Below, in pieces: positions 11,702-44,872 of a DNA stretch of 48,664 bases. The DNA lies in IMG/VR virus record IMGVR_UViG_3300029686_000225; one strand, 5' to 3'. The notes beneath the pieces are model-generated. The model did no database searches and was not told where the DNA came from. It saw only the letters and a program-made list of their open reading frames with translations. The position numbers and the translations under genes are program-made. Source of the stretch: a virus. Taxonomy: Duplodnaviria; Heunggongvirae; Uroviricota; Caudoviricetes. Within the stretch, counting starts at the first letter, position 1. Every line of letters starts with the position of its first letter.

Positions 11702-11782
11702 AAAAACATCCCTGAAAGTGGGTACCGGTAATACTGAAAATTTATTCCATTAAATGAGCATTGTCCTCTCTCATCCATTCCG

Positions 11783-16019: not shown

Positions 16020-16020
16020 A

Positions 16021-16581
16021 TCACAACCCCGCCAGTTCAGCCCAGCGATGACGATTATTTCCTGTCGGGCGTAATTCAGGGTGCTGTGCAAACAACGAAC
16101 GGTGGGCAATCTCCACGCCGGATTCGGGATAAGCAGGCATCGACGTTATCGTGATTTCACGGAGTTCTGCGGCGGTAACAGTGCGCAGATACGGTTTTTG
16201 CGCGATATTCCATTCTTCGCATAATGCGCGAAAGCCAAAGCTCATTCCTGTAATGTCGCCACGCTCCACCAGCGTAAGCACATCTTTTCCAAGCTGGGTA
16301 TCAGGCGGTGTCAGTTCAAAACGTAGCCCGGTGTTGTCCTCAGTCAGTACCAGTGTTCCGGATTTGGTGCGCCCCAGCAGTCGGGTATAGTCATGCTCAT
16401 ACAGGCAGCGCACATCATTACCCGCCGCCAGATAGTCAGCAAAAGCCCCCGGCGTGAACTGTTCGCGGAATTCGTCCCAGATAATTTCTGAAAGGCTGTT
16501 CCAGCGAACGGCATAACCCACCAGTTTTTTATCGCTGGCGGTCAGTTCAGATGTACGGATTTCAAAATCGGTATTTTTCAT
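16021..16581 (-). CDS. prohead protease, HK97 family (satellite)
   Basis: About 186 aa; GGAG RBS; motifs LGRTKSGTL and MSFGF typical of the prohead protease family. Confidence 0.8.
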   Translation of the reverse strand: MKNTDFEIRTSELTASDKKLVGYAVRWNSLSEIIWDEFREQFTPGAFADYLAAGNDVRCLYEHDYTRLLGRTKSGTLVLTEDNTGLRFELTPPDTQLGKDVLTLVERGDITGMSFGFRALCEEWNIAQKPYLRTVTAAELREITITSMPAYPESGVEIAHRSLFAQHPELRPTGNNRHRWAELAGL

Positions 16582-16630
16582 CGGTGTACTCCATAAAGCT
16601 GAAAAAGGAGGCCGAAGCCCCCTTTGCTCA

Positions 16631-17776
16631 TTACTTGCCAGCCTGAATTTCCAGAATCTTGATGGCGTTCGAATCCACCACACCACCGCCCAGATATTTC
16701 TGGGTATAGATGTTAATGAATCCGGGTTCGCTGAAATCCGGACGGGTTCGCGTACCGGTTTCATGGTCAACGATGAAATAACCGCGCTTAAAGTCACCTA
16801 CTGCAATCACACCGTCCGGCATAAATTCCAGATATTCAACCGGAAGCCCCAGCAGAGAATCAGGATCACCAGCCTGTAAACGATCGCGCCAGATGTAATC
16901 ACCAGTGGCATTTTTCAGTTTTTGTGCGGAGGCGGCTGTATTTGAGTTCATCACCCATACAGCTTTTTTGCGGTACTTATTGCGTAGCGTAAATTTCAGG
17001 TCAATCAGCATGTCGGCGCTGAGACTGCCAGTCACTTTTTTCGTCTGGAGCGTACCGAAAGGACGGGTTTTGTCGTTATCCGCAGTGCGCGGAAAAGCCA
17101 GGAAACCTTTAGCTTTTTTCTCGCCATCACCAGAAACCAGATCCGTTTCTTCGGTATCAACGAAAGTGTCGCCAATTTCAGAAGATAACCAGCTCATAAT
17201 ATCGACTTCGGAAAAATCGATAATTTCCTGAGTGGTTTTTGGGTAAGCGTAGATCGGATACAGGCGGATACTGACTTCATTCAGTTTTGGGGTTGCCGTC
17301 TGGTTACGTGTAGTGCCTTCTTCACCGTGTTCAACGACCGCGCCCCCGGCAGAAACCAGTTGCTTAAATTCATTGCTGTGAATGGTTTTAACGGTACAGA
17401 TTTTACGCATCACCGATTCATCAGAAAGCTGACGCATAATTTCTCTGTTCAGTTCCGGGATAACCGTATAACCACCATCAGCCGGGACACTGCCAGACAG
17501 GTTGCGGGTTTCCCCGGTCAGAATGTAAGAGCGCAGTTCGTCTTTGGTTATTTTCTCTTCGACGGAAACACCAGGCTGGTTACGTTCTTCATCAGCCACA
17601 GATTCGAGGCGGGAAATTTCTGTGTCGAGGGAATCGGCTTTTGCACGCAGTTCATCAAACTGTTTGCCCTCGTCATCGTTCAGGCTGCGGTTTTCACTGT
17701 CGGCTTTTTCCAGCAGGGATCGCATCTGGTTTTTCAGGGCGGTTTTTTGCTGGCGGAGTTCGATTAATTTCTTCAT
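16631..17776 (-). CDS. major capsid protein, HK97 family (satellite)
   Basis: 381 aa with N-terminal coiled coil and HK97-like core. Confidence 0.9.
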   Translation of the reverse strand: MKKLIELRQQKTALKNQMRSLLEKADSENRSLNDDEGKQFDELRAKADSLDTEISRLESVADEERNQPGVSVEEKITKDELRSYILTGETRNLSGSVPADGGYTVIPELNREIMRQLSDESVMRKICTVKTIHSNEFKQLVSAGGAVVEHGEEGTTRNQTATPKLNEVSIRLYPIYAYPKTTQEIIDFSEVDIMSWLSSEIGDTFVDTEETDLVSGDGEKKAKGFLAFPRTADNDKTRPFGTLQTKKVTGSLSADMLIDLKFTLRNKYRKKAVWVMNSNTAASAQKLKNATGDYIWRDRLQAGDPDSLLGLPVEYLEFMPDGVIAVGDFKRGYFIVDHETGTRTRPDFSEPGFINIYTQKYLGGGVVDSNAIKILEIQAGK

Positions 17777-18013
17777 GAAGGTTTTCTCGTATTGGTTAAG
17801 ATTCAGGACGTGAAACCAACACGGAGGGAGCGCCGCCCGACACTCTCGGCATCTCGCAGATCAACCCGGCATCGCGCAGGGGGTCAGGCGGCATTGTGGC
17901 GGCTCACGTCTGAGTGCCACACGCCAACATATACATAAAAATCAGTATGTAAACATCAGCCAGAATCACCGAACAACCTGGAACAACCACGAACAAATAA
18001 TTTACAAAACCTG

Positions 18014-18040
18014 AAAAAAAGACCCGGAAAAATCCGGGCC
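18014..18040 (-). terminator. intrinsic terminator
   Basis: Hairpin CCCGGAAAAATCCGGG flanked by A-run and T-run; minus strand reads hairpin then TCTTTTTTTC. Confidence 0.5.
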
Positions 18041-18049
18041 TTTATCGCT

Positions 18050-18298
18050 TTATTGTTTCACTGGATCCCGCATTCTGCGTCTTATTTTCCACAGATATTC
18101 GATCATCGCTTCCACCTGCTCACGGTTGGTTGCGAAAATTTCCCCGGTCAGTGAGCTACGCAGAAAATCATGATGATCCACAACAAACAACGCATCGGAA
18201 GAAAGCAGACGGCGATATTTTTTTGCTGTCGTGGTTTCCAGATCATCAAAACCATGAAATTTTTTATGTTGCTGGACTTCTTCAAATGTCACTGGCAT
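18050..18298 (-). CDS. hypothetical protein
   Basis: 82-aa ORF with AAGGGGG RBS; no recognisable motif. Confidence 0.5.
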   Translation of the reverse strand: MPVTFEEVQQHKKFHGFDDLETTTAKKYRRLLSSDALFVVDHHDFLRSSLTGEIFATNREQVEAMIEYLWKIRRRMRDPVKQ

Positions 18299-18831
18299 GT
18301 ATCCCCCTTTACTGCCCGGCGCTGGCGCTTGTGCTTCTCATTCAGCGCCATCAGCCGCGTTTCTGCCTCCTGCTGTTCCTGTGGTGTCACCTCGCCGCAC
18401 GGCTGGCCTTTCAGGTCGTAACGTGCACCACCAGCCATTAAGGCGCGGTAATAGCGCGGAGACTGCGCATAGGATGCCAGCGTCGCACGTAATGCCCCCG
18501 GCCCGAATGTCAGCCCCCTGGCGGCGATATCCTGCATCAGGTCGTCGCATATCCCCACCTTAAGCGGCTTCGGTGCTTCCCGGCTGAATAAGTCAGGCCA
18601 CATCTCTGTGAGGCGGTTAACGCGCCTGCGGTTTTTGCGCTGGCGTTTGGTCATATGCCGCCACGGTGTCGCCTCTGTGGGCTTCTGTTTGCGGCTCTGC
18701 TGTGCGTTCTGATTGCCGGGCATCACTTTATGCGCCGATGTGGCTTTATCCTGCTGCTGTGCCGTCTGCGTTGTTTTCTGCGGCGTGCCGTAAATGCCTT
18801 TCGGTTTTCGGTTAATGGTCAGCGTTGTCAT
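18289..18831 (-). CDS. ProQ/FinO-family RNA-binding protein
   Basis: C-terminal region PLKVGICDDLMQD...LRATLASYAQSPRYYRALMAGGARYDLKGQPCGEV resembles the ProQ/FinO domain; basic N-terminus. Confidence 0.65.
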   Translation of the reverse strand: MTTLTINRKPKGIYGTPQKTTQTAQQQDKATSAHKVMPGNQNAQQSRKQKPTEATPWRHMTKRQRKNRRRVNRLTEMWPDLFSREAPKPLKVGICDDLMQDIAARGLTFGPGALRATLASYAQSPRYYRALMAGGARYDLKGQPCGEVTPQEQQEAETRLMALNEKHKRQRRAVKGDTCQ

Positions 18832-18867
18832 GCTTTCCCCTGTAATAACTCTGTTCGCTGTTGTGAA

Positions 18868-19293
18868 TTAAAACGGTATGTTATCCCCGTACGGGTCATC
18901 GTGCTGGCTTGTCTGTTGTTTTGCCCTGTTCAGTGCGTCAGTGGCCTGGCCCTGCTGGCCTTTTTTGCCGCCCGGTCGCGCCGTTCGCGCACTGATTACG
19001 CTGTCTGCGATAACCTGCCAGCCCTGTCGCGTTTCCCCGTTCTGGCCTGTCCACTGGCTTACCTGCATGTTACCCGCCACGCTCACCAGTTCGCCTTTGC
19101 GGTGTTTTGCCAGTGCGTCGGCCTGTCTGCCAAACGCCAGGACAGATAACCACATCGTCGCCGTTCCGTCATCTGCCTGGCTGCACGGCAGGGGAACCGC
19201 CATACTCGCCATAGCCATTTGTGTCCCCTTGCTGGTGGTCTTTAACTGCGGGTCAGCCACCAGCCGCCCGTAAGCCGCTATCTGTGCTGTCAT
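18868..19293 (-). CDS. ssb: single-stranded DNA-binding protein
   Basis: OB-fold pattern and acidic C-terminal tail ...DDPYGDNIPF. Confidence 0.8.
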   Translation of the reverse strand: MTAQIAAYGRLVADPQLKTTSKGTQMAMASMAVPLPCSQADDGTATMWLSVLAFGRQADALAKHRKGELVSVAGNMQVSQWTGQNGETRQGWQVIADSVISARTARPGGKKGQQGQATDALNRAKQQTSQHDDPYGDNIPF

Positions 19294-19357
19294 GCTGTCT
19301 GTTCTCCGGTTTTAACGTTGATTGTTACGCTTGTTTACACCCTTACGGTGAAATTCT

Positions 19358-19480
19358 GCGGGTTATAATCGCACTTTTGCGGGTTATAACTGCCGTTTTG
19401 CGGGTTACGTGCGGGTTATTGATTTCCTTTTTATTCATACAGTTAATGCACTTATGCACAGGATAACCCGCATAACCCGC
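19358..19480. repeat. candidate replication origin iterons (GCGGGTTA x4 direct, TAACCCGC x2 inverted)
   Basis: Direct copies at 19358, 19379, 19400, 19411 (21, 21, 11 bp spacing); inverted at 19464, 19473; immediately 3' of the primase-helicase gene. Confidence 0.7.
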
Positions 19481-19503
19481 AACTTTTCACCTCACACAGG
19501 GGG

Positions 19504-21627
19504 TTAATCTTCTGCCTCAGGCTGGAACATCAGCACGTAAAAAACATGCTGCTTCCCCCCAATTTTGCCGAGCGCCTTTTTCTTGTAACGGCGATCGTTA
19601 CCCGCTTCCAGCATTCCGGCAGCACTCAACGCGCGGGCAAAGTGAGACGGATTAAATCCCTGTGCTATCTCACCCTCAAATACATGCGGGAACGTGTAAA
19701 AACGGAACTCGTCATCTTCGTTTCTGATACACCCCTTTCTGTATCCGGCAAGCTCTTTAATCGGTAAATCACGCTCGTCGGTGTTGGGCCACGGAAGGTA
19801 TCTGCTGAATCCGAACGACGCTAAAAAAGCCTCTGCCTGTTCAACCATCTGTTTAAACTCCCTGTTACCCGTGCCGAACTCCTTCACCCAGGCATTAAAA
19901 TTATGCTGAATGGCATCGCGGCACGCCTGAACATCCCAACCAGTAATATGGACGGAAAGCACCAGCGCCGACTCCAGCATGGCGAATCGTTCCCCCACAC
20001 GGTGAACCTGTTCGCCGTAACTCTCCGGTATCAGGTTGCGCCACCGTTCACGGCATGCCCTTACCGTATCCTTTGCCTCCTGCTGGTGGTCTGCCAGCCA
20101 TTTAACCCATTCACGCCCCGCCGCCCCGTGATTTTCTGTCCAGGCATCCTTTAACGCGTCTGCGTGTGCCTTTCCGGTGCTGTATTCGTGAAACTGCGTG
20201 GCTTTTTCCATTGGCACGTTAAGCAGGCGGACAAGCTGCCCCGCCTTGACTTTTATCCCCTCCGTTTTGAGGAATGTCTCAACGTCCATTTCTCCGGTGC
20301 TGATTGCCACCGTGCGCCAGTGTTTGATCTCCCTGTTGCCGCCGTCCTTCGCCCCCTGTAATTTCCCCGAACCGTTAAACAGCGTATAAGCCGACGTGGA
20401 CACTTCCCGCGCGTTTCCGGCCTGGCCTATTTCATCCAGGGGTAAAAGCCCGTCATTGTGTGCCTCTGCTTCGTTGGCGATACCTAACGCTGTGCCGTAC
20501 CAGGTCAGCCGCTGCGCGTCCGGCTCTCCCCATAAACTTGATGCGATGTTCTGCGTTGTGGTCTTACCTGCCGATGACTGTTCGAAAAGATGTACCCCGA
20601 AGCCGTCAGCACCCACCAGCCCGATTAATGGTGCGGATAGCGATACCGCCACACCCAGCATCATGGACGGATTACCACCAGCCAGTCGCGCCACACTGTC
20701 GCGCCAGCCCTCCGCCGTTCCTGCCACGGAATAACCATTAACGGCAGCCGTTTTTCCGGTAAACAGGACTGGCTTTTCGCAATCACCAATGACCGAACCG
20801 TCCGGCATGATGTACGCGCCAAAATGCCAGCCCGTTGTTGTGCTTAACTGCCATTCCTCATGGTTTCCGCTTAACTGCATCCAGTCAGCCAGGATAGCCC
20901 TGTATTTACCGTTGGTTGTCACGTTCAGTCCGTGGTCTTTCAGCAGCCGCCAGCCGTCACGGTCGCCAATGCCACCGCACGGAACCGCCATCGTGATGAC
21001 TTCATGGTTTGCTGGCTTTTTCCAGCGCATCACGCGGTAATGCTCTTTGCCGATTGTCCCCGTTCCCAGTAGCTCAAGCGGGGAGCATAACCACGTTTCA
21101 GGCCGGATAATTTCGCCTGACTGCTTATCCACTTTTGGCGTTACCCAGAAAACACCATCGGCGCGGCTTTCAACGCGGGGCTTTAATTCATCATCACCCG
21201 GGCTTTCTGTGATTTTTTTCTTTAAGGGCAACACCAGACTTTCCCCGCGCTCGTATTCGTCTTTGAGGCGAGGCAACTGGTCGGATAAATCCGCCGGGCT
21301 GGTGTCAGTTATCCCCGCGTATTCGTATACGGTCTTCACGCCAGCCACAGCCAGCAACGTGACGATCTGTGTGAGGCTACGTTCAGTGATGTGCCCTGCG
21401 CGGTAAATACGCACACACTGACGGCTATCATCAATAATTTGATAACCGGTAATATCTTTCAGGTGTTCATCTGACAGAACGACAGGCGGCACATTGTCGG
21501 CGGCAATATGCTTACCTGCCCATTCCTGCCACTCTTTCGCATGGCTCCACGCATCACTACCCGCAAAGATGATAACCTCCGTCATTTTGTCGGCTGGCTG
21601 GTGCTTTAAGTTTGGTGCGCGCTTCAT
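19504..21627 (-). CDS. replication initiator, putative primase/helicase
   Basis: 707 aa with Walker A-like SSAGKTT; sits next to the iteron cluster as PICI/P4 replication genes do. Confidence 0.7.
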   Translation of the reverse strand: MKRAPNLKHQPADKMTEVIIFAGSDAWSHAKEWQEWAGKHIAADNVPPVVLSDEHLKDITGYQIIDDSRQCVRIYRAGHITERSLTQIVTLLAVAGVKTVYEYAGITDTSPADLSDQLPRLKDEYERGESLVLPLKKKITESPGDDELKPRVESRADGVFWVTPKVDKQSGEIIRPETWLCSPLELLGTGTIGKEHYRVMRWKKPANHEVITMAVPCGGIGDRDGWRLLKDHGLNVTTNGKYRAILADWMQLSGNHEEWQLSTTTGWHFGAYIMPDGSVIGDCEKPVLFTGKTAAVNGYSVAGTAEGWRDSVARLAGGNPSMMLGVAVSLSAPLIGLVGADGFGVHLFEQSSAGKTTTQNIASSLWGEPDAQRLTWYGTALGIANEAEAHNDGLLPLDEIGQAGNAREVSTSAYTLFNGSGKLQGAKDGGNREIKHWRTVAISTGEMDVETFLKTEGIKVKAGQLVRLLNVPMEKATQFHEYSTGKAHADALKDAWTENHGAAGREWVKWLADHQQEAKDTVRACRERWRNLIPESYGEQVHRVGERFAMLESALVLSVHITGWDVQACRDAIQHNFNAWVKEFGTGNREFKQMVEQAEAFLASFGFSRYLPWPNTDERDLPIKELAGYRKGCIRNEDDEFRFYTFPHVFEGEIAQGFNPSHFARALSAAGMLEAGNDRRYKKKALGKIGGKQHVFYVLMFQPEAED

Positions 21628-21938
21628 TTTGCCTTTCCCCGTTCACGAATAATTTCACGTACTGCCTTAATGCGTTCCATTCCTGTAACGCGCATGATTC
21701 TGTCGATGTCGCTTAATTCTGCTGGTGGTGCTTTGCTTACCAGGGTGAACTCCCTGTCAAAGCGCATATGTGACGACACGCAGGGATGCGCATAACCTTC
21801 GCGGATATAGGTCACACGAAAATCATCGACGGTTTTAATCGTTATCGTGCTGCCGTATTTATCCCGGAAAATATCACCGGGGCGGATTTCAGGCCGAGCG
21901 TGACCGCTGGCAGTAAAGCCAGAATTTTTCTTTTTCAT
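21624..21938 (-). CDS. hypothetical protein
   Basis: 104-aa ORF; stop overlaps primase start (ATGA). Confidence 0.5.
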   Translation of the reverse strand: MKKKNSGFTASGHARPEIRPGDIFRDKYGSTITIKTVDDFRVTYIREGYAHPCVSSHMRFDREFTLVSKAPPAELSDIDRIMRVTGMERIKAVREIIRERGKAK

Positions 21939-21944
21939 GTTTTT

Positions 21945-22163
21945 TTACTCCAGAGGCAGCTTTTTAGCGGCGAGCTCAATATCAGATGTCAGAGAAACCT
22001 GTGTATTTGCCAGGTCTAACAACAAAGAAATAAGAATTTCTTCTCTGCTATCGGATTTATCGGTGCTAAGGCTGTTCATCCACATATTGACGACTTCCCT
22101 GATTTTTTTCGCAGAGTGCAGGGCTTCAAATGCCAGGTCTTCAATATCATGTTTATTTCGCAT
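21945..22163 (-). CDS. hypothetical protein
   Basis: ATG at 22163 with G-rich RBS; 72 aa. Confidence 0.4.
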   Translation of the reverse strand: MRNKHDIEDLAFEALHSAKKIREVVNMWMNSLSTDKSDSREEILISLLLDLANTQVSLTSDIELAAKKLPLE

Positions 22164-22398
22164 AATCGCCCCCGCCATTTTCACAATCAGCAATCAGGAT
22201 GGCTTTAGCCTCATTCAGCGCCATATCAGCGGTAAGCTGTGCGTAAGCCAGCGAATGCGGGATTATCGCCCCTGTATATTCCGTCTCTCTGGTAATGTGT
22301 TTTTCTGCGGTTGCTGCCGTGCATGAAATATCAATCAGCGCGTGCATTAGCGTTTTGATGGCTTCGGCGGCTGCGTCCGGACGGGTGTTATTGCACAT
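22153..22398 (-). CDS. hypothetical protein
   Basis: 81-aa ORF with AGGGGG RBS. Confidence 0.45.
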   Translation of the reverse strand: MCNNTRPDAAAEAIKTLMHALIDISCTAATAEKHITRETEYTGAIIPHSLAYAQLTADMALNEAKAILIADCENGGGDYAK

Positions 22399-22594
22399 GG
22401 CGTACCCCCTGACGAATACGGGCGGCGAATACCATCACGCAACCAGCCGGGGATTGCTGGCGTGCTTCCTGTTCGCTGGTGGCCTCAATGGTAATCACGC
22501 GCGGTTGTGCCGTGCTCAGGGCGATAAAACGCCAGATGTATTTATTCAGGTTGTGCGAGTCCCGCCCTTGCGGGTGTGTGGTATGATTTCTCAT
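22388..22594 (-). CDS. hypothetical small protein (first gene of leftward operon)
   Basis: 68 aa; ATG at 22594 with GAGGT RBS; only the 3' 207 nt of the 363-aa track ORF is taken as real. Confidence 0.4.
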   Translation of the reverse strand: MRNHTTHPQGRDSHNLNKYIWRFIALSTAQPRVITIEATSEQEARQQSPAGCVMVFAARIRQGVRHVQ

Positions 22595-22691
22595 AGCTAC
22601 CTCGATACTTCTGCTATCGTTGGTGGTTAGAAGCCCTGCGAGTGGTAACGACACTTGCGGGGCTTTGCATTTATGCGCCTTGATAATTTTA

Positions 22692-22727
22692 AGGTGTGGC
22701 CCACTATATGTTTTAGGTGTGGCCCAC
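22692..22727. promoter_or_regulatory. two 13-bp direct repeats AGGTGTGGCCCAC in a divergent promoter region (candidate operator)
   Basis: Repeats at 22692-22704 and 22715-22727, 23 bp apart, followed by TATACT and the RHH gene RBS. Confidence 0.45.
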
Positions 22728-22793
22728 GTCAAGAGTTTTATTTGTGCTTTTTCTGTGTATACTGTCCCCCACCAATCCACCAGAGGAATAGAA

Positions 22794-22973
22794 ATGGCAA
22801 CGGGTACAACAAACGCAAAATCACAAGCTCTAAAGGCTCGTGTACCACACGAAATAGTAAACGCCATGGAATCAGTGAAAGAATCAGGCGAAAGCACATC
22901 ACAATTCATCATTACGTCAATGCAAGGCGAGATCAAACGCCGCCAGCGTCGCAAGGCCAAAGAGCAGGAGTAA
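22794..22973 (+). CDS. putative ribbon-helix-helix-type regulator
   Basis: 59-aa ORF with AGGA RBS; only plus-strand gene in the element. Confidence 0.45.
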   Translation: MATGTTNAKSQALKARVPHEIVNAMESVKESGESTSQFIITSMQGEIKRRQRRKAKEQE

Positions 22974-23310
22974 CCATCACCAGCGCCGTGGTGTGAGGAA
23001 TCACGGCGGCAACCATAGGAGTAAAAGATGCCAAAACTTAAAAATTGTGCACTCTGTGCGATTGTTCTAATTGTCGCCGCCTTTATCTTAAAATCATGCT
23101 TCGAGAAAAAGAATCTTTGCGGAAGCAATGAAGGCGATATATTACGGCGTGCTTGCGATATAGAGTTGAAAAAAAGTTGAGCATAACCTAACCGCGACAA
23201 TGCCGTAGTTCCTGTAATTACAGAACAGCTCAGGATTTGCCCACCAGCCGCAAATGTGGCATTGTTGGTTATGCTCATGCGTTGGGGATAACGTGTAGCT
23301 TGTGTCAAGG

Positions 23311-23339
23311 GGCCACCGTAGCGGGTGGCCTTTGTTTTG
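23311..23339 (+). terminator. intrinsic terminator (plus strand)
   Basis: GGCCACC-GTAGCG-GGTGGCC then TTTGTTTTG. Confidence 0.5.
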
Positions 23340-23376
23340 CCTGTTATCCTGCAACTATGGTCATTTCGACCACGGT

Positions 23377-23465
23377 TGATATAATCCCCCCGCACAGATT
23401 CATTTTTTGCGCAGTAGGTTAATTGTTCGCAAGGGCGCTCCGGTAACGGGGCGCTTTTTGTTTTT
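23377..23465 (+). ncRNA. candidate small RNA (extended -10 promoter to intrinsic terminator)
   Basis: TGATATAAT at 23377-23385; hairpin GCGCTCCGGTAACGGGGCGC plus T-run at 23435-23465; no ORF. Confidence 0.3.
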
Positions 23466-23623
23466 ACCCACCAGCACAATAAAAATCTTCATTTTCCATT
23501 TTTGTAAAATTTCATGCTTTCCGGACGACTGGTAATATGTCATTTTTTAGCAGAAGATTTTGCCTTGCTGGTGGGTAGCTTCCCGGTCAACACGATGTAC
23601 CGTATAATCAACACCGCGTGTGG

Positions 23624-24217
23624 TTACTGAATACGCTCACCAAAGTAAAACTCAGGCTGGTATTCACGTATCAGCCTTTTTTCTTCTTCCTCCAGTTCAC
23701 GCTTTTTGCGCTTACATGCCTGTAGCTCCCTCCCCTTCTCGCTGGCACTTATCTGGTATTGCTCTTTGCGGCGGGAAAAATCCTGTAATGCGCCCCACGG
23801 GATACCATAAGCCCCCGTTTTTCTGATACCCGGTATCACATTTCTGAATACCCAATTACTGAAACGATGGGCGAACGTGCCAGGATTAACAGCTTTGCGA
23901 CTTCTGGCGATCAACTTGTAAAAACCTGATTCTGATACAACATTCCAACTTCTGGCACCACCACGCTTACCTGAATGACCCTCGGTTAAAGCTAGGGTCA
24001 TTACCTCATCGCTATCCAGAACTGAAACAGCATCGGTAACGTTGCTAATTTCCAGCGCCGCACACACATCAGCGCCAACAAACCACGGATCGCCGTTCAG
24101 ATACACCACGCGAACGTTCACACTATCAAAGCGCAGAACGACCAGATCGCGAATATCACAGAATTTTTTCACATGACGTGCGTCACCCTTGCCCGTCGCG
24201 GCAATATTTTTATTCAT
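23624..24217 (-). CDS. Bro-N domain protein (antirepressor-like)
   Basis: N-terminal pattern VRVVYLNGDPWFVGADVCAALEI typical of Bro-N/KilA-N; GAGGT RBS. Confidence 0.65.
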   Translation of the reverse strand: MNKNIAATGKGDARHVKKFCDIRDLVVLRFDSVNVRVVYLNGDPWFVGADVCAALEISNVTDAVSVLDSDEVMTLALTEGHSGKRGGARSWNVVSESGFYKLIARSRKAVNPGTFAHRFSNWVFRNVIPGIRKTGAYGIPWGALQDFSRRKEQYQISASEKGRELQACKRKKRELEEEEKRLIREYQPEFYFGERIQ

Positions 24218-24232
24218 CACTTTCTACCTCAC

Positions 24233-24264
24233 ATACAAAAAACCCCGCATTGCGTGGTGCGGGG
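24233..24264 (-). terminator. intrinsic terminator after alpA
   Basis: Minus strand CCCCGCACCACGCAATGCGGGG then TTTTTTGT. Confidence 0.55.
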
Positions 24265-24274
24265 TTGTCGGTAA

Positions 24275-24553
24275 TTACTTATTGGCGTTTTTGTATGGGC
24301 TGTTTACTTCCTTTACTCCTGGCGGATGCATAACCCACCAGAGCACATCAGAGAGCAACCAGGAAACAGACACTTTCCCTAAATGAGCACGAGCAGGAAA
24401 TGCTCCCTCCTGTTCAAGTACCCAACGTCTGCTTCTTGAAAGCCCGGTACGATTGGCACACTCATGTTCGCGTATACGGCGATCATACGGTTCGCCATGT
24501 TCTTTCAGAATCTGAATGCGTTCTTCGGGTGTAGGATAAATAAATTTTTGCAT
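24275..24553 (-). CDS. alpA: AlpA-family transcriptional regulator
   Basis: HTH_17-like segment TGLSRSRRWVLEQEGAFPARAHLGKVSVSW; GGTGA RBS. Confidence 0.75.
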   Translation of the reverse strand: MQKFIYPTPEERIQILKEHGEPYDRRIREHECANRTGLSRSRRWVLEQEGAFPARAHLGKVSVSWLLSDVLWWVMHPPGVKEVNSPYKNANK

Positions 24554-24566
24554 AAAAATATCACCT

Positions 24567-24592
24567 ATAAAAAAACCCGCCAAAAGACGGGT
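24567..24592 (-). terminator. intrinsic terminator
   Basis: Minus strand AACCCGTCTTTTGGCGGGTT then TTTTTTAT. Confidence 0.45.
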
Positions 24593-24616
24593 TGATTATA
24601 TCTCATTTAATTTAGT

Positions 24617-24838
24617 TCAGGGTTTCCATTCACCCTTTACCCATTCCAGCACCTCAGATAAGCGCCAGACTTTTGTTTGTGGGCCAATACATATTTTCCG
24701 TGGAAATTTTCCTTCCTTTTCAAGTAATGCTCTGTGTCTCCTGCCAAGAGCTGTTAACCATGCACATTCATCTTCCTTAATCATCCTGTCGATTGTTTTA
24801 TCATTTTCAAGTTCTTCACGCGTAACTATTTCAATCAT
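24617..24838 (-). CDS. alpA: AlpA-family transcriptional regulator (second copy)
   Basis: HTH_17-like segment AWLTALGRRHRALLEKEGKFPRKICIGPQTKVWRLSEV; GGTGA RBS. Confidence 0.7.
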   Translation of the reverse strand: MIEIVTREELENDKTIDRMIKEDECAWLTALGRRHRALLEKEGKFPRKICIGPQTKVWRLSEVLEWVKGEWKP

Positions 24839-26039
24839 TACCGTCACCACTAATTAGCTTATTCAGATAGTCGTACCACCAGTTCATAGCTTCTTTTTTT
24901 CTGTCCATATACTGACTTCTGTTATAAACCCCGGCAACACCGCCTAATGTGTGCCCAAGCAACTGTTCAACCACATTATGTTCAAAACCATGATCACTTA
25001 GCTTTGTGGCAAACACTCTTCGCATATCATGCGCCGTCCATTTTTCCGAGTGTTTCATCCTTTTCCATGTCTTACCGATAGTTACGCTTGCCGTACACTG
25101 ACGCATATCAAACCCAATCACATTTTCTTTGTTACCTGTTATTTTTTTTAACGTAACTAACCAGTTAAACATGCCATCAGGAATCGGTCTGATTATTTCC
25201 CTGCCATTTTTGCTATGATCAGCGGGAACGCGCCATAATTTCTTATCAAAATCCCACTCTACCCAGGACGACAGTAATACTTCTGACAGTCGACAACCAA
25301 AAACTACCAGGAAACGTAAAATAATTCGGTTTTCATATGATAATTCGTGATTGTCATAATCAGTATTAATACTTCGCCATAAATCTCTGATTTCATCATC
25401 TGTTAAAACCCTGCTTCTTCGCGCAGACTTTTTTCCCACATCACAGACCTCAAGATCATCAATTTCATGACTAATCGCGTATTTTCTTACCCTACAAAAT
25501 TTAAGCGCCTGTTTTGATATACGCAACAAAGCTCCGGCCTGTACAGGTGCTACTTTTTTTATTTTGTCAAAACACTTGATCCACATAGATATAGAGCAAT
25601 CACTAAGTGGTACATGACCAATCACCGGATAAATATGTTTACCAAAGCACTGCCTGATATGTTCTGCTCCCCTACGCTTATCCATTGCATAATTATCAAG
25701 CCAGTATTCAAGTGCCTCACGAACGGTAACAGGTTGCAAGGTGGCTTCCCGTTCAATTTTTATCTGAATCCGTGGATCTCTGCCCTCCGCAAGCCAGGTT
25801 CGACACTGATCGCGCATCTCTCTCGCTGATTTGAGACTCAGATCAGGATATTTTCCAAGTGTCAGCCAGATGGGCGCGGTTCCCCTTCCCGCCAGTCTGT
25901 AAAAGAAAACAAAACTAACACATCCGTATTTACTGACCCGTACCGAAAGCCCGTTACCATCAGCGATGGTTTCCTGCCTCTCACTCCTGCGCCCAAGCAG
26001 GGAACGAAGTTTTTTATCGCTCAGTTTGTTTAGCGCCAT
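24831..26039 (-). CDS. int: tyrosine integrase (P4/PICI-type) of the inserted element
   Basis: About 402 aa; C-terminal catalytic region with R...H..R and HDMRR...LLGH...Y; adjacent to the element junction. Confidence 0.85.
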   Translation of the reverse strand: MALNKLSDKKLRSLLGRRSERQETIADGNGLSVRVSKYGCVSFVFFYRLAGRGTAPIWLTLGKYPDLSLKSAREMRDQCRTWLAEGRDPRIQIKIEREATLQPVTVREALEYWLDNYAMDKRRGAEHIRQCFGKHIYPVIGHVPLSDCSISMWIKCFDKIKKVAPVQAGALLRISKQALKFCRVRKYAISHEIDDLEVCDVGKKSARRSRVLTDDEIRDLWRSINTDYDNHELSYENRIILRFLVVFGCRLSEVLLSSWVEWDFDKKLWRVPADHSKNGREIIRPIPDGMFNWLVTLKKITGNKENVIGFDMRQCTASVTIGKTWKRMKHSEKWTAHDMRRVFATKLSDHGFEHNVVEQLLGHTLGGVAGVYNRSQYMDRKKEAMNWWYDYLNKLISGDGND

Positions 26040-26210
26040 GTGATTTATAACCCGTTTTTGCAATACACAGTGCAATACACAAATGATGAAAACAGCCAGA
26101 ACCTTCCAGAAAAAACAAAAACGACGAACAAGAAAAAATCTTTTTCTTTCATTTGGTTACTAAAAAAATCAGGACAGGTCGCACTGTTGTTACGGCGTGA
26201 TGTTACTTTC

Positions 26211-26224
26211 TTGGTAAAAAAATT
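26211..26224. repeat. right junction repeat of inserted element (TTGGTAAAAAAATT)
   Basis: Partner of 11261-11274; lies in terL codons F-T-K. Confidence 0.7.
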
Positions 26225-35947: not shown

Positions 35948-37045
35948 TTATGGTATTAATCCAGCTGTTCTTGCTTTATTAATATAATTTTTACAGTGGT
36001 TAGCCAAATACTCTGCAAACTTGCATGGAAGTGCATTTCCTATTATGACGCATACTTTATCCATCAAGGCTGTATCAAACACATAGTTATCAGGAAAAGT
36101 CTGTAGTCTAGCAGCTTCTCGAACAGAAATAGTACGCGTATCCTCAGGATGTCCATATCGCCCACGGCTTAAAGTTGTGCACCCACCTGTAATCGTAGGC
36201 GATACGTCATCCCAAAGCATACGACCATAAACATTACTAAATCCTTTATAGTCGCCTTTATGGCAATCTGGACGGAGTTCTTCGGGAATACACTCCCAAG
36301 ACATCCCTGGAACAGCCGCTTGTAACCGCTTTATATTGATCTCAGACAAATCCCTAACAATATGCCAACTCGACAATGGAAACTTCCCTTGCTTCTTAGC
36401 CTGTGAAAGGGTTAAGGGTTTTGGCATATCTCCAATAGCTTCTTTAACAGTTACCCATTTGGGTTTCTCTCTTCCATCCTTAGAGTGTGATCCATCAGGC
36501 AATGGGATGGCAAATCCTTTTCCTGCCAACAGAACAAGTCTTTTTCTGAACTGTGGTACACCAAAGTCAGCTACTTGCAAAACTCCATAATTAACTATGT
36601 AACCAAGTTTTTTCAATCTCTCAATTACTGGCGAAAGAAGATGATTTCCCCGGGAAGCTAATCCAGGAACATTTTCCATCATGATTGCTGATGGATTGGT
36701 TTCTTCAACCAACCGTAACATCTCGTTAATCAATAAATTACGAGGGTCCTCCCTTTTATACTTGGCAGTGAGACTAGTAAATCCTTGACATGGCGGGCAC
36801 GCAGATAAAAGATCTAAATGTTGCTCAGGGATAAGATTTAGGATATCACTCCCCTTTACAAACCGAATATCTTGAACAAAGAGTTTTGTCTCACGATGAT
36901 TTGCTTGGAAAGTAGCGGCGGCATGTGCGTCCAGTTCAACGGCAGCTTTGACATCAAACCCGGCCATTTTTAGTCCCATGGTTAGTCCCCCACCACCGCT
37001 AAATAGGTCAACTGCATTCAAACTGGTCACTGTTTTCTCACTCAT
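35948..37045 (-). CDS. DNA (cytosine-5)-methyltransferase
   Basis: Motif I DLFSGGGG, motif IV PPCQGFT, ENV, C-terminal GNALP. Confidence 0.85.
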   Translation of the reverse strand: MSEKTVTSLNAVDLFSGGGGLTMGLKMAGFDVKAAVELDAHAAATFQANHRETKLFVQDIRFVKGSDILNLIPEQHLDLLSACPPCQGFTSLTAKYKREDPRNLLINEMLRLVEETNPSAIMMENVPGLASRGNHLLSPVIERLKKLGYIVNYGVLQVADFGVPQFRKRLVLLAGKGFAIPLPDGSHSKDGREKPKWVTVKEAIGDMPKPLTLSQAKKQGKFPLSSWHIVRDLSEINIKRLQAAVPGMSWECIPEELRPDCHKGDYKGFSNVYGRMLWDDVSPTITGGCTTLSRGRYGHPEDTRTISVREAARLQTFPDNYVFDTALMDKVCVIIGNALPCKFAEYLANHCKNYINKARTAGLIP

Positions 37046-39149
37046 TATTTCCCAACTTCAACTGTTCTGCCTCATCCAAGAATTCTTGGTGAGTTTGAGT
37101 TGTCCTCAGCAAGAACCCTGCCCAATCAACGGGTGTTAGGCGTTTTTCTTCGATGTATGCAGTATAAGCTTTACGACGTGCCCCACTCAAGCGCTCCCCA
37201 TCACTTACCAGCGTAACGTGAAAATCAGATGCTATTGATTTAAAATCATTATGTCTCTCATCGTTCAAAAATTCCTCGAATGTTTCGAAGTAATTAATAA
37301 TACGATCCATTTCATCATTGGAAATATAATGATGTGGCTTTTTTATTTCAATTATTTGTAATTTTCCATCCTGACTAAACAATACAAAGTCTGGTCTTTT
37401 ATTTTTTTTATCAAAATCTATAAGAAATATCTCCTCACCAGTTTTCTTTTTATAAAATTTTTGAAACTCCCTTTTAAGCGTGGACAACGTTTTATTTGCT
37501 GTAACTGGGACCCATTGAGGGTTAACTAGCCACGGAGCGGATGCAATTAGATCTTGTAACTCATCTTCTGCTGTATCCTTTGCGTCTTTTAAAGACTCGA
37601 GACGCTCAATAATCTGAAGACGCTTTTTGACCTTTTGACCAAAACTAACGGTTTCAGCTAGTTGAGCCGTTGCTAAAATATCATTGAGAACATTGAGCGG
37701 TGTATCCGCTTTACTGGAAGCTTCTATTAACTTCTCATCTAAGGATTGTAATGGTGCTAACATAATACTTAACTGCACTAAATTCTCGAGTGCATCAGGA
37801 TCATGTAATTCATCACCTCGTAAAGATTTACCCAACAACTTGGCTATTTTTTTAGCCTGTGCTCGCATATCCTTTTGACTGGCTCCAGGGTATGCTTGCT
37901 CGACCTTATCCTCCACTTGCGCTAATTCGAAGAATTGATTCATCATATTATTTCTAAGGGGGTCGCGAGTTATTTTACCCACAAGTAAAATAACTTCTTG
38001 CCCCCAATTCTGAAATTGCGTTCCTAAATCATCAGACCATAGAATATCCCTTCTATCAGTTTGGATAAGATCTTCTTTTTCGTCTAACCAGTCAGCATGC
38101 AACTCACCTACCAAATATGAACGTATAGAGTGCTCTCCAGTAAAACCAGCTTTTCTATTAAAAACTGCTGTTTGCGCAGCAAACTTACCTCGGCAATAAA
38201 TTCTAACACCTGCCATTAACTCGTCCTTATAAGGCTCTTTTGCGTATGCAATCCAACCTAATATCGGGTAAGCTTTCCCTTCATGTTCAAAACCGGCCTT
38301 AACAATTGATGAACGCGTGCCGTCAGGATTAAAAGCCGCATAATCACTTAAATCCGTACAAGAATCCGTCGCAATACTTCCACTCATGGAACGAAATTCA
38401 ATTTTAGAGTTAGGCATAACAGGAACAGTAAACTCTCCGACCTCAACTTCATAGTCAGGATTAGATTTTGTTTTCGAAGTATCAATCAGTTTAATATTCC
38501 AGTTTTTACTCTTCACTCCAAAACGTTGTGAAAGCTGCCGAGATAAATCTTTTATTTCGCTAATTTTTCTATATTCAAAATCACTTAATATTATTTTAGT
38601 ATAGGTCCTGTCACTTAGTGTGCCGTCTAAATCCCCAGTTTCCGGTTTATAAGACACTGCAGTATCATCCATTATTTTTTCTTTATCTAGCCGAATATGA
38701 GCAACCTCATACCCTTCCTTTCCATCACGACTGATTTTTTCCCCACCGGCACTTATAATCTCGACCCTTTTACAAACACCAAAAGGTGCTAATTTCCCAA
38801 CGCCTTTCCGTCCCATGACTTTGCGGTGAAACACCTTCGAGGTTTCACCTCTTTTTGGATCCTTACGTCTTTCTTTGCCAACAACCAAATAAAAGTTCTG
38901 TAGTTCATCAGGCGCCATTCCGACGCCATTATCTTCTACTTCTATTGTGACATTTTTTGACCTGACAACACCATCCTGTCTAACAGCCAAGTATTGGCCC
39001 ATAGGTGCTTTTATAGTGACATTAGTCGCATCTGCATCGTAACTGTTAGATACTAATTCGGCTATAACAGCATAAGCCCTGTCATATAATTTCACACCTA
39101 ATTTATCTACTGTCATCCTTGATATCTGCATTTCATATTGACGCGCCAT
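37038..39149 (-). CDS. GHKL-type ATPase fused to a PD-(D/E)xK-like nuclease domain (candidate restriction/defence enzyme)
   Basis: N-terminal Bergerat motifs ELVSNSYDA, EDNGVGM, GRKGVGK; C-terminal RPDFVLF...LQIIEIKK; overlaps the methyltransferase start by 8 nt. Confidence 0.65.
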   Translation of the reverse strand: MARQYEMQISRMTVDKLGVKLYDRAYAVIAELVSNSYDADATNVTIKAPMGQYLAVRQDGVVRSKNVTIEVEDNGVGMAPDELQNFYLVVGKERRKDPKRGETSKVFHRKVMGRKGVGKLAPFGVCKRVEIISAGGEKISRDGKEGYEVAHIRLDKEKIMDDTAVSYKPETGDLDGTLSDRTYTKIILSDFEYRKISEIKDLSRQLSQRFGVKSKNWNIKLIDTSKTKSNPDYEVEVGEFTVPVMPNSKIEFRSMSGSIATDSCTDLSDYAAFNPDGTRSSIVKAGFEHEGKAYPILGWIAYAKEPYKDELMAGVRIYCRGKFAAQTAVFNRKAGFTGEHSIRSYLVGELHADWLDEKEDLIQTDRRDILWSDDLGTQFQNWGQEVILLVGKITRDPLRNNMMNQFFELAQVEDKVEQAYPGASQKDMRAQAKKIAKLLGKSLRGDELHDPDALENLVQLSIMLAPLQSLDEKLIEASSKADTPLNVLNDILATAQLAETVSFGQKVKKRLQIIERLESLKDAKDTAEDELQDLIASAPWLVNPQWVPVTANKTLSTLKREFQKFYKKKTGEEIFLIDFDKKNKRPDFVLFSQDGKLQIIEIKKPHHYISNDEMDRIINYFETFEEFLNDERHNDFKSIASDFHVTLVSDGERLSGARRKAYTAYIEEKRLTPVDWAGFLLRTTQTHQEFLDEAEQLKLGNNE

Positions 39150-41890: not shown

Positions 41891-42529
41891 ATGAGCAAGC
41901 AAACAATATCTGAACGCATAACCCAACGTATGCATGCGCTAAACCTGAAAGGCAAAGACCTTGTCAATGCCACTGGCGCATCAAAAGGCTCCGTAAGTCA
42001 ATGGATGAACGGTGGAGGAGCGCCGTCCTCGCGTTACATAAGTTCACTGGCAAAGATATTGAAAGTAAACGAAAATTGGCTTCTTAATGGAGGAGAGTTA
42101 AATACAGGTGATTCGCTTGATCTATCTTTACCGCCGATAAAAACGGTTCCGCTACTATCACTTCAGCAGGCAGCAAGCTGGAGTGATTATATGAAAAATT
42201 CCTCAATAACCTCTTGTGTGCAGCTTGTCGGAGAAATCCCGGCCAATACCTTTGCAGTTGTTCTAGAGAGTGACAGTATGTCAACATCTGGTGGGGGAGT
42301 TTCCATCCCAAATGGATCAACAGTTTTTGTTGATCCCGATCGAACCGCACAACCAGGAAATATTGTCCTTGCCTTACCCAAAGGGACCACAACACCTGTC
42401 ATTCGTAAACTGGAGATAGAAGGGCCGGATATTCTTTTAGTCCCCACGAATCCTCGCTACCCTTCAATTATGCTGGATGATCTATCTTGCATATTGGGTG
42501 TATGCTTTAAAATTCAACAAGATATTTAA
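41891..42529 (+). CDS. CI-like repressor (HTH plus S24 LexA-like peptidase domain)
   Basis: 212 aa; N-terminal HTH (LKGKDLVNATGASKGSVSQW), C-terminal S24 motifs (LESDSM, K in VIRKLEIEG). Confidence 0.85.
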   Translation: MSKQTISERITQRMHALNLKGKDLVNATGASKGSVSQWMNGGGAPSSRYISSLAKILKVNENWLLNGGELNTGDSLDLSLPPIKTVPLLSLQQAASWSDYMKNSSITSCVQLVGEIPANTFAVVLESDSMSTSGGGVSIPNGSTVFVDPDRTAQPGNIVLALPKGTTTPVIRKLEIEGPDILLVPTNPRYPSIMLDDLSCILGVCFKIQQDI

Positions 42530-42819
42530 CCGACCTCATCTATTTGATTAACTGTATGCCATCGTGGTGATGGCTTAACAGCTGCCTGCTCAAAATGTTT
42601 TGATAAAAAAACATTGACCTGAAAAGTTCATTTTTCTAAACTTAATTCATTCCCTCACCCCACCCCACAAAATGCAGGGCAATACTTCGAGTTACCAGGC
42701 AGTGGTCAGGGGGGTAAGTAGCCAGCCCGAGGCGTAAGAACATGACGGCAGGGTTCAACTTTAACTATGCAGCAGGTTTTTGTTCCGCTACCCCGGCGTT
42801 AAGGGGAAATGAGGTCAGC

Positions 42820-42975
42820 ATGGATACTATCGATCTTGGCAACAACGAATCTCTGGTATACGGCGTGTTTCCCAACCAGGACGGCACATTCACCGCGATG
42901 ACGTATACCAAAAGCAAAACGTTTAAAACCGAATCTGGCGCACGTCGCTGGCTGGAAAGAAATTCAGGTGAGTGA
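42820..42975 (+). CDS. ydfA: YdfA-like small protein (DUF1391)
   Basis: 51 aa from MDTIDLGNNESLVYG with strong RBS. Confidence 0.6.
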   Translation: MDTIDLGNNESLVYGVFPNQDGTFTAMTYTKSKTFKTESGARRWLERNSGE

Positions 42976-42976
42976 T

Positions 42977-43105
42977 ATGGATTTCGACGCAATCATGGAA
43001 AAGGCTTACGAAGAATACTTCGAAGGCCTTGCCGAAGGCGAAGAAGCTCTCAGCTTCAGTGAGTTTAAACAGGCGCTTTCCAGTTCGGCAAAATCTAACG
43101 GCTGA
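42977..43105 (+). CDS. ydfB: YdfB-like small protein (42 aa)
   Basis: Hand-translated MDFDAIMEKAYEEYFEGLAEGEEALSFSEFKQALSSSAKSNG; AGGTGA RBS; not in the ORF track. Confidence 0.5.
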   Translation: MDFDAIMEKAYEEYFEGLAEGEEALSFSEFKQALSSSAKSNG

Positions 43106-43134: not shown

Positions 43135-43353
43135 ATGCAGAAACGAGAACCCGTCATCATCGCGCCAGACTATACCGATGATGAACTTTATGAGTGGATG
43201 CGCCAGAAAATTAAGGCAGCGCAGGACCTGAAATGGGCCAATGAAGCCAGGGCTAAGCAAGCTGAAAATCTGTCCGCTCTGGAGCAGGATATCACCAATC
43301 TGGAAAAAGCAGCGGCATTAAGCATTGCCAGAATGATTACATACCCGCGTTAA
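43135..43353 (+). CDS. ydfC: YdfC-like protein
   Basis: 72 aa; GAGGAAT RBS; same position as ydfC in the Qin dicB operon. Confidence 0.6.
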   Translation: MQKREPVIIAPDYTDDELYEWMRQKIKAAQDLKWANEARAKQAENLSALEQDITNLEKAAALSIARMITYPR

Positions 43354-43488: not shown

Positions 43489-43920
43489 TTATCTTGAGTT
43501 CATCCAGAACTTATTATTACAGGCGGGGCAAAAAGTACGAAAATGAGCATCAAGGCGCATTATTTCCATTGGCTGCAGTACAGATATTACCTTTTTTCCA
43601 AAACATTGTGGGCAAAGATGCACTGTTATCTCAGTATCGCCTATAAATTGCTTCTTGGAATACACAAGAGTTCCAGAATCAAGCTTGTTAAGTTTGTAAC
43701 CTTCCGCCTGTTGCTGAAAGTCTTCTATCTCTGCAATTTTTGCTTTGAGAGATGCGGCTTCTTCCTGATAAGAGCGCACCATCTCAATGAGCGATACGCA
43801 TTCAAACTGAACAGACGTAAGTTTTGAAAGCATATCGCTGACAGCGGAATTTATCTCAGTTTGAGTTTTGGCATTCAGAATACCCTTTGCCATTACCGCA
43901 GTTTCTTTGATTGCCGACAT
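43489..43920 (-). CDS. hypothetical coiled-coil protein with C-terminal zinc ribbon
   Basis: About 143 aa from ATG at 43920; CPQC...CPAC; antisense insert between ydfC and dicF/dicB. Confidence 0.45.
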   Translation of the reverse strand: MSAIKETAVMAKGILNAKTQTEINSAVSDMLSKLTSVQFECVSLIEMVRSYQEEAASLKAKIAEIEDFQQQAEGYKLNKLDSGTLVYSKKQFIGDTEITVHLCPQCFGKKVISVLQPMEIMRLDAHFRTFCPACNNKFWMNSR

Positions 43921-44235
43921 TGCTGCTGAGAACTCAACTATCACGTTACATACTCTTCTCGTTGTTGGGGATATCCGGATTATACAAATTTCTTGTTGTT
44001 GGGGAATAACAGGAACCACCTCGCCTGACGTGGTTAAAAGCAGGCACACAACACGAAAGCGCACGGCGAAGTTCGTCTCACTGTACGGTGTCGTTAAATT
44101 TAATTCGACCGTGCGCTTCCGGTTGTGGCACTCCGCGAAATGGCGCGGCGATAAGTATGGCGAAGCTATCCTTTCCTCGAGATAACACCGGGTTGTCAGG
44201 TTGACCATACGCCTTAGTGACAACCCCGCTGCAAC

Positions 44236-44300
44236 AACCCATGTTGATTACCTTTTGGCGGGTATCCGTTCTTTGTTCCCTTGTGATACCCGCCCTTTTT
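44236..44300 (+). ncRNA. dicF: DicF-like small RNA candidate ending in intrinsic terminator
   Basis: UUUUGGCGGGUAUC...GAUACCCGCC then U5, just upstream of dicB; shares the UUUGGCGG(G)UAUC core with E. coli DicF. Confidence 0.4.
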
Positions 44301-44483
44301 AAAGTGAATTTTGTGATGCGGTGAATGCGGCTCAGCGCACGCGGAACAGTTAAAAAGGCCAGTTGACTTCCGTATTGGTTCTTATGGGTGGGTTCTCTGT
44401 ATCCGGCGTTAATTGTTAACTGGTTAACGTCACCTGGAGGCACCAGGCACCGTATCACAAAATTCATTGTTGAGGACGCGATA

Positions 44484-44672
44484 ATGGAAACGTTATTACC
44501 AAACGTTAATACGTCTGAAGGTTGTTTTGAAATTGGTGTCACTATCAGTAACCCTGTATTTACTGAAGATGCCATTAACAAGAGAAAACACGAACGGGAG
44601 TTATTAAATAAAATATGCATTCTTTCAATGCTGGCCCGTTTACGTCCGATACAAAAAGGATGCTGGCAATGA
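44484..44672 (+). CDS. dicB: cell division inhibitor DicB
   Basis: 62 aa from METLLPNVNTSEGCFEIGVTISNPVFTEDAINKRK, matching E. coli DicB; GAGGA RBS. Confidence 0.85.
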   Translation: METLLPNVNTSEGCFEIGVTISNPVFTEDAINKRKHERELLNKICILSMLARLRPIQKGCWQ

Positions 44673-44872
44673 ATACAGCATTTGCACTTGTTCTGACAGT
44701 TTTTCTTGTTTCCGGTGAACCGGTTGACATGGTTACTGGCGTATACAGCTCAATGAAAGAATGCACGGCTGCCGCAGCGGAACAGAAAATTCCCGGTAAC
44801 TGTTATCCGGTCGATAAAGTTATTCACATGGACAATAACGAAATCCCGGCAGGACTTAAAACAGCACCGTAA
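44669..44872 (+). CDS. ydfD: YdfD-like small membrane/lysis protein
   Basis: 67 aa from MNTAFALVLTVFLVSGEPVD; ATGA overlap with dicB. Confidence 0.75.
   Translation: MNTAFALVLTVFLVSGEPVDMVTGVYSSMKECTAAAAEQKIPGNCYPVDKVIHMDNNEIPAGLKTAP

Follow-up and report, generated by a model that had tools for sequence, protein, structure and literature searches.

A candidate small RNA allele with replaced DicF targeting regions at the dicF position of a lambdoid prophage

We analysed a 48,664-nucleotide stretch of viral DNA (IMG/VR record IMGVR_UViG_3300029686_000225, Caudoviricetes; "the window" refers to this whole stretch) and conclude that the segment at positions 44236-44300 is probably an allele of a polymorphic small RNA (sRNA)/terminator locus, which lies in the lambdoid early-left operon directly upstream of the dicB/kil leader and includes DicF and KilS as other alleles. 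Judged from its sequence, the allele at this slot is probably a related small RNA whose targets are not those of DicF, since both DicF seeds, the 5' end that pairs with xylR and pykA and the loop that pairs with ftsZ, are absent from it. Four computed results form the basis of this assignment, namely the synteny of the locus, the conservation of its hairpin, its family relationship and the loss of complementarity to the DicF targets.

Gene content and order identify the surrounding region as the dicBF operon of a prophage of lambdoid type. A LexA-type repressor gene (41891-42529) is located upstream of ydfA, and the interval between the two contains a sigma-70-like sequence (42614-42642, plus strand; 9/12 matches in a consensus scan), positioned as in the K-12 dicA-ydfA interval, which we regard as the putative operon promoter and analogue of the dicBF promoter. 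The ydfA-like (42820-42975), ydfB-like (42977-43105) and ydfC (43135-43353) genes follow on the plus strand, and their translations match the genes annotated in two homologous loci, L001 and L003 (K-12 Qin). Between ydfC and the conserved leader lies a gene for a 151-aa protein (43489-43944, minus strand; phrog_1244, unknown function), which the alignment identifies as an insertion absent from K-12 Qin. Pfam and PADLOC searches with this gene gave no match; its product carries a C-terminal CxxC...CxxC arrangement, and a direct repeat, (C/T)GTTGTTGGGGA, is present twice upstream of it (43959-44005). A Type II restriction-modification pair, consisting of a restriction-enzyme-like gene (37038-39149) and a C5 cytosine methyltransferase gene (35948-37045), occupies 35948-39149 on the minus strand, between the prophage replication genes and Q.

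The slot lies between two untranslated regions. The conserved upstream leader (43990-44235, plus strand), the precursor region, is homologous to the K-12 ydfC-dicF untranslated region, contains a hairpin, GGGUUGUCA...UGACAACCC, at about 44190-44226 and an apical patch of variable sequence at 44068-44095, and folds with z = -3.6. Among its 120 distinct sequences from 177 loci almost no covariation was found, and a structural conclusion from covariation was dropped, because conservation is too high for almost any compensatory change. The structured dicB leader (44301-44483, plus strand; fold z = -4.5) is predicted to form a 21-bp long-range helix between 44303-44323 and 44448-44468, and it also holds a pair of conserved hairpins, together with a variable centre at 44355-44386. 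The long-range helix resembles an RNase III substrate, and its position matches the RNase III cut that gives the 72-nt form of DicF (PMC5069750). The dicB gene (44484-44672, plus strand; Pfam PF05358, 127 bits) with its Shine-Dalgarno sequence GAGGA (44472-44476, plus strand) comes next, followed by the ydfD-like DUF1482 gene (44669-44872, plus strand; Pfam PF07358, 81.5 bits), an 801-aa 3'-5' exonuclease gene, an 83-aa ORF in the excisionase position and, at the window end, a C-terminally truncated ORF in the integrase position.

The dicB leader (44293-44516) resembles the Rfam STnc100 model RF02076 in both sequence and structure, with 34.1 bits and E = 1.2e-5, below the gathering score of 47. 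Similar sub-threshold matches occur in the leaders of loci L003, L002, L227, L228 and L229 (28-39 bits overall). The match differs from STnc100/PasD in covering the leader rather than the candidate hairpin, and Pas sRNAs sit in the late (Q/holin) prophage region. Part of the dicB leader is also matched by the P1-like phages P7 and D6.

On the plus strand, the slot (44236-44300) reads AACCCATGTTGATTACCTTTT, GGCGGGTATC, CGTTCTTTGTTCCCTTGT, GATACCCGCC and C TTTTT. A 21-nt variable 5' module, designated type B in our allele survey (AACCCAUGUUGAUUACCUUUU; AACCCATGTTGATTACCTTTT), occupies 44236-44256 in place of the DicF 5' seed, as seen in the survey and the alignment; within it, GA|UUA at 44247/44248 might be cut by RNase E. 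The terminator hairpin (44257-44294; type H2), supported by the fold, by pair counts and by a covariance model, consists of a perfect GC-rich 10-bp stem, GGCGGGTATC at 44257-44266 with GATACCCGCC at 44285-44294, and an 18-nt C/U-rich apical loop, CGTTCTTTGTTCCCTTGT, at 44267-44284. The C and T5 tract at 44295-44300 (T5 at 44296-44300) would form the RNA 3' end if transcription is terminated here; it is identical to the 3' ends of DicF and KilS, and the U-tail has five U's only. The folding energy of the slot was -21.8 kcal/mol (z = -3.8; equalled by none of 200 shuffles), and the stem with T5 gave -18.6 kcal/mol, versus -15.9 for DicF. A terminator scan of the window did not report the hairpin at 44257-44294, because the scan admits loops of 3-8 nt only. 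The preliminary description of this DNA had pointed to a terminator hairpin and a divergent 5' region at these positions, with dicB and ydfD following as in Qin. Both features are present, the fold being beyond chance, and the gene order agrees as well, with ydfC upstream and the whole arrangement syntenic with dicF.

Compared with K-12 Qin, in which dicF lies at 2883-2935 of locus L003, the flanks are nearly identical and the exchange covers about 60-70 nt at the position of dicF; across canonical loci, the flanks show 89-100% identity and the slot 41%. The nearest E. coli prophage, that of strain Z1324SEC0014, is 99.6% identical in the inserted gene (43489-43944), 100% in dicB and 96.7% in the T-run and 5' arm of the leader, while the slot is 41% identical. 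Since this near-identical prophage carries canonical DicF, the alignment indicates that the slot differs by discrete patch replacement, not by general divergence. Besides the slot, two non-coding leader patches are hypervariable among near-identical prophages whose surroundings are 97-100% identical, and they are 55% (44068-44095) and 31% (44355-44386) identical to Z1324SEC0014. The patch at 44355-44386 follows the type of the 5' module, and that at 44068-44095 assorts independently. The linkage of the former, the variable centre of the leader (V3), with the slot type was set aside as uninformative evidence, as V3 goes with the 5' module (A or B), probably by physical linkage.

The slot shares with DicF its place between ydfC and dicB, the conserved upstream leader and the downstream RNase III-type leader helix, a similar predicted RNA size, and the GGCGG/CCGCC hairpin base, preceded by UUU and followed by a CUUUUU tail, so that the resemblance of the terminators, stated in the preliminary description, holds in both base and U-tail. 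In the alignment with K-12 Qin, UUUUGGCGGGUAUC in the slot corresponds to UUUGGCGGUAUC of DicF. In contrast, the DicF 5' seed UUUCUGGUGACG is missing, the apical ftsZ-pairing GUUUUACUCCG is replaced by CGUUCUUUGUUCCCUUGU, and the DicF stem is interrupted, with an inner 4-bp helix, whereas the stem of the allele is a perfect 10 bp. A search with the DicF model of Rfam release 15 (RF00039), which had been proposed as a check of the DicF likeness, gave no match at the gathering score (48 bits) in the whole window, nor even at E of 10 or less on the 701-nt piece 43900-44600. Since the K-12 dicF positive control scored 76.7 bits, the allele falls outside the DicF family as defined by this curated model. 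The Rac KilS region scored 39.1 bits, and loci with the H2 or the Stx-phage hairpin type gave nothing at E of 1 or less. The absence of an annotation in RefSeq was dropped as evidence: it means little, because PGAP leaves even canonical dicF unannotated in L001, L231 and L232.

To place the allele among its relatives, we surveyed IMG/VR, one genome per species, and metagenomes, with the conserved flanks or the 5' segment of the window as queries, and obtained about 200 loci. Across these loci the slot is a mosaic of at least three 5' modules and seven hairpin/loop types, all hairpin types having the GGCGG/CCGCC base in common. Module A is canonical and holds the DicF 5' seed, B is the type of the window, B' was seen at one locus and C belongs to the Shigella Stx phage 75/02. 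Among the hairpins, H1 is that of DicF, H2 that of the window, with loop sub-variants of 17-20 nt, and H6 that of the Stx phage; H3, H4 and H5 are further types, of which H5 is short with an 8-nt loop. The combinations observed were A+H1, A+H4, A+H5, B+H2, B+H3 and C+H6. The exact 65-nt allele of the window recurs at loci L187 and L201, and B-type alleles align with a 10-nt gap opposite DicF UUUCUGGUGAC. Among the 194 slots counted, all those with an identifiable downstream gene precede dicB or kil; in the window itself, the hairpin is followed by the AAAGUGAAUUUUGUGAUG leader helix (44303-44323/44448-44468) and then by dicB at 44484.

The hairpin is conserved as a structure. In an alignment of 11 alleles, 86.8% of the stem cells were paired, as against 37-58% in slid-partner controls, and two compensatory pair changes were found (G-C to or from A-U, and U-A to or from C-G); canonical DicF is the one that departs from the common stem. 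A covariance model, R1, built from six non-H2 alleles (DicF, KilS, H3, H3', H4 and H6), gave a sole significant match in the 48.6-kb window, at 44253-44304, with 36.6 bits (E of about 2e-7 by a rough calibration), a score that comes in part from shared flanking bases; the next match scored 12.4 bits. This model and the synteny place the allele in a broader DicF/KilS locus family. Within H2, the loop is 17, 18, 19 or 20 nt long and keeps only the 5' GUU (CCGUU) and UUYCCC, and since both length and sequence vary within the type, the H2 loop appears not to be under strict purifying selection. Loops of 12-19 nt are nevertheless kept in all alleles but one, which would be unusual for a terminator without another role and argues for more than a terminator loop.

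Several loci depart from this pattern. In phage vB_Apl-pPE4 (PP818812; L228, about 2406-2590), a tandem duplication upstream of kil covers the complete B+H2 unit, from the 5' module through the hairpin and T-run to the first 20 nt of the leader; although recorded under Actinobacillus, the phage has E. coli-type dicA/ydaT/kil genes. Two IMG/VR loci (L160 and L173) have a deletion that takes the 5' arm of the H3 hairpin and destroys the terminator. In two further loci (L106 and L124, the latter from E. albertii), most of the DicF 5' module is kept, with two differences, and is joined to the short H5 hairpin, which has an 8-nt loop in place of the ftsZ-pairing one. Among 5426 complete E. coli genomes, 150 contain an H2-type segment at 90-95.5% identity, none of them identical, and 84 contain the B+H3 type at a coverage of at least 80%; the dicBF region, taken as a whole, has matches in 4645.

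The second characterized member of this family is found in K-12 Rac, where the annotated sRNA KilS (b4833; L229 2406-2503, minus strand) lies upstream of kilR, within its 5' UTR. KilS terminates in the family hairpin, GGCGGCAUCAG...CUGAUGUCCGCC, with T5, directly followed by the AAAGUGAAUUUUGUGAUG leader, and like the allele of the window it has a large U-rich loop and a division-inhibitor gene downstream. It differs in its CAUCAG/CUGAUG stem (H3-like) and its loop, in its length of 98 nt and possibly its own promoter, in the lack of about 130 nt of the upstream leader in Rac, and in being scored by RF00039, which gives nothing for the allele. DicF (Qin) and KilS (Rac) share a hairpin family, a position, the leader that follows and a division-inhibitor gene beyond it, and they appear to be two alleles of a single locus. 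Hfq RIL-seq data led to the discovery of KilS, which was confirmed by northern blotting and may have its own promoter; the paper that describes it makes no mention of DicF (PMC8175672). Alleles of the locus other than DicF can thus be real Hfq-associated sRNAs. We found neither the allelism of DicF and KilS nor the present allele described in the literature consulted, which covers the work on DicF in part, so that an earlier mention is possible.

DicF itself is made by termination, RNase E and RNase III, its 3'/apical-loop region pairs with the ftsZ ribosome-binding site, and its 5' end pairs with xylR and pykA (PMC5069750). The preliminary description had assigned the ftsZ pairing to the 5' region of DicF; the assignment is thus reversed. 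We evaluated pairing as the cofold ddG, that is, complex minus monomers, against 100 shuffled targets. DicF gave -15.1 kcal/mol with ftsZ, reached by 0/100 shuffles, and -16.2 kcal/mol with xylR, reached by 1/100. The allele of the window gave only -1.4 to -4.2 kcal/mol with ftsZ (65-68/100 shuffles), -0.8 to -3.7 with xylR (55-59/100) and -1.1 to -2.3 with pykA (62-83/100). For the ftsZ ribosome-binding site the complementary sequence is replaced, and for xylR and pykA a 10-nt gap falls on the 5'-end seed, the ddG values being at the null level in both cases. According to these predictions, the pairing of DicF with ftsZ, xylR and pykA is lost in the allele, in which both targeting regions are replaced. 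The earlier proposal of a DicF-like sRNA candidate with differing targets accordingly stands as to the dicF position, the hairpin and the differing targeting regions, the loss of predicted pairing agreeing with other targets, and falls as to which end pairs with ftsZ and as to the Rfam match.

As for the targets of the allele itself, duplex scans of 147 kb of K-12 sequence, the known targets and the window, together with the cofold tests, yielded no convincing candidate, and near-perfect complements of the 5' module or loop, with five or fewer mismatches, were found neither in the window nor in the K-12 pieces. Plain RNAduplex scans of the 147 kb of K-12 and the known targets were rejected as not discriminative, since the pairing of DicF with ftsZ, although validated, ranked no higher than the top 2.5%, and the cofold ddG took their place.

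By analogy with DicF and KilS, we infer that the allele is terminated, processed, bound by Hfq and active in trans. Transcription would start at the repressor-controlled operon promoter, and possibly also at an internal promoter as reported for KilS, and part of the transcripts would terminate at the hairpin and U-tract of 44257-44300. An RNase E cut in the AU-rich spacer would then release an RNA of 50-65 nt, possibly one of 53 nt if the cut falls at GA|UUA (44247/44248). The product would have a short U-rich 5' tail, the 10-bp stem with its 18-nt C/U-rich loop, and a U-tail. A U-rich tail, a stem-loop and a U-tail make up the standard Hfq-binding layout. Through the loop and/or the ACCUUUU tail, the RNA may pair in trans with purine-rich, Shine-Dalgarno-like mRNA segments, presumably in targets other than those of DicF, and read-through transcripts would carry the leader helix and dicB. 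We keep the claim modest, since function is assigned here through the homology of position and architecture.

A possible, though in our judgement doubtful, alternative is that the slot acts solely as an intrinsic terminator or attenuator, which limits read-through into the toxic dicB and has no function in trans, the allele differences being neutral or tuning its strength. The perfect GC-rich 10-bp stem with T5, more stable than that of DicF (-18.6 versus -15.9 kcal/mol), would suit such a role, as would the invariance of H2 stems while the loops drift by T-run slippage, the target searches that found none and the short 8-nt loop of the E. albertii H5 allele. However, Hfq-associated sRNAs have been proven for two sister alleles, DicF and KilS; loops of 17-20 nt, which make a terminator weaker, are nevertheless kept in all H2 sub-variants, large loops also being kept in nearly all other types; and the unit is tandemly duplicated in pPE4. 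The loop drift within H2 leaves the attenuator reading some weight. A functional DicF orthologue, still repressing ftsZ and blocking division via other base pairs, is very improbable: although the allele occupies the same position beside dicB, and the raw RNAduplex score of its loop against the ftsZ upstream region is in the top 4% of background windows (DicF, 2.5%), the best duplex lies at -58 to -33 in a stable ftsA-ftsZ hairpin, off the ribosome-binding site. Moreover, the ftsZ-pairing GUUUUACUCCG is missing, and when intramolecular structure is considered the ddG of -1.4 to -4.2 is no better than shuffled, against -15.1 for DicF. That the slot encodes a small protein can practically be dismissed. 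Two plus-strand ORFs of 33-35 codons with TTG/GTG starts (44201-44302 and 44217-44324) span it, but the starts are non-ATG, the 17/18/19/20-nt loop variants of otherwise identical alleles break the reading frame, and the homologous K-12 regions are established non-coding RNA.

A further alternative concerns a mobile element resident in the same prophage. The prophage terL is split into an N-terminal (26045-27238) and a C-terminal part (10531-11256) by a 14.7-kb element (11343-26080), flanked by 21-nt direct repeats (11343-11363 and 26060-26080; 20/21 identical). Its genes include an integrase, an antirepressor, a DUF927 primase, a major capsid protein, a portal, terS and a terL of its own, tail genes being absent, and a homologous E. 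coli element (PGAP) adds a prohead protease, an HNH gene, a ProQ/FinO-family protein and an Icd-like division inhibitor. Read against this homologue, the gene order matches that of proteobacterial capsid-forming PICIs (cf-PICIs), which suggests a cf-PICI-like satellite. The same int/terL junction is present in 36 of 5426 complete E. coli genomes, and the primase fragment shares 92.7% identity with its counterpart in EDL933, which carries the prototype cf-PICI EcCIEDL933. In the parts of the cf-PICI preprint consulted, six chromosomal attB sites are given and we found no mention of a prophage terL site.

The loop of the allele might then target the mRNA of this primase, in an RNA-level conflict between phage and satellite. 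Its best complement in the window is indeed a 21-bp duplex (five G-U pairs, one bulge) with the minus-strand RNA 20363-20341, within the primase ORF (19504-21627), and the energy of -29.8 kcal/mol was reached by none of 60 shuffled loops, whose best duplexes averaged -25.4 (sd 1.7). The site is, however, in the middle of the ORF, the duplex partly uses stem nucleotides of the sRNA, and the statistic is marginal (z of about -2.6) after several searches. Furthermore, the prophages of OkiPb01701, which has an identical primase fragment, and of Z1324SEC0014 have a cf-PICI in terL but canonical DicF, so that the two do not co-occur. Since prophages with the same satellite carry canonical DicF, we retain the primase as a weak lead, with only a slim chance of being correct. 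An sRNA/terminator allele with targets other than those of DicF remains the reading we favour.

DicF is a textbook prophage sRNA, through which de-repression of the prophage is coupled to cell division, sugar metabolism and EHEC virulence. Should its locus prove polymorphic, a sister sRNA with different targets may be expressed even in strains that are negative for dicF in Rfam searches, and the separately described DicF and KilS would belong to a single locus as alleles. More tentatively, the dicF position might serve as a seed-swapping cassette, in which lambdoid prophages swap short 5' modules and hairpin loops at the conserved recombination anchors CCCGCUGCAAC, UUUGGCGG and CCGCCCUUUUUAAAG, to give a series of sRNAs (DicF, KilS, H2, H3, H4 and H6) with differing host or rival-element regulons, co-expressed with a division inhibitor. 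Were this cassette reading true, the allele of the window would be a regulator carried by about 3% of E. coli, and its regulon, differing from that of DicF, might extend to transcripts of mobile elements resident in the same cell, such as that of the cf-PICI primase. With a polymorphic locus, the annotation of prophage sRNAs would be affected, and the locus would provide a natural allelic series for the evolution of sRNA seeds by patchwise recombination.
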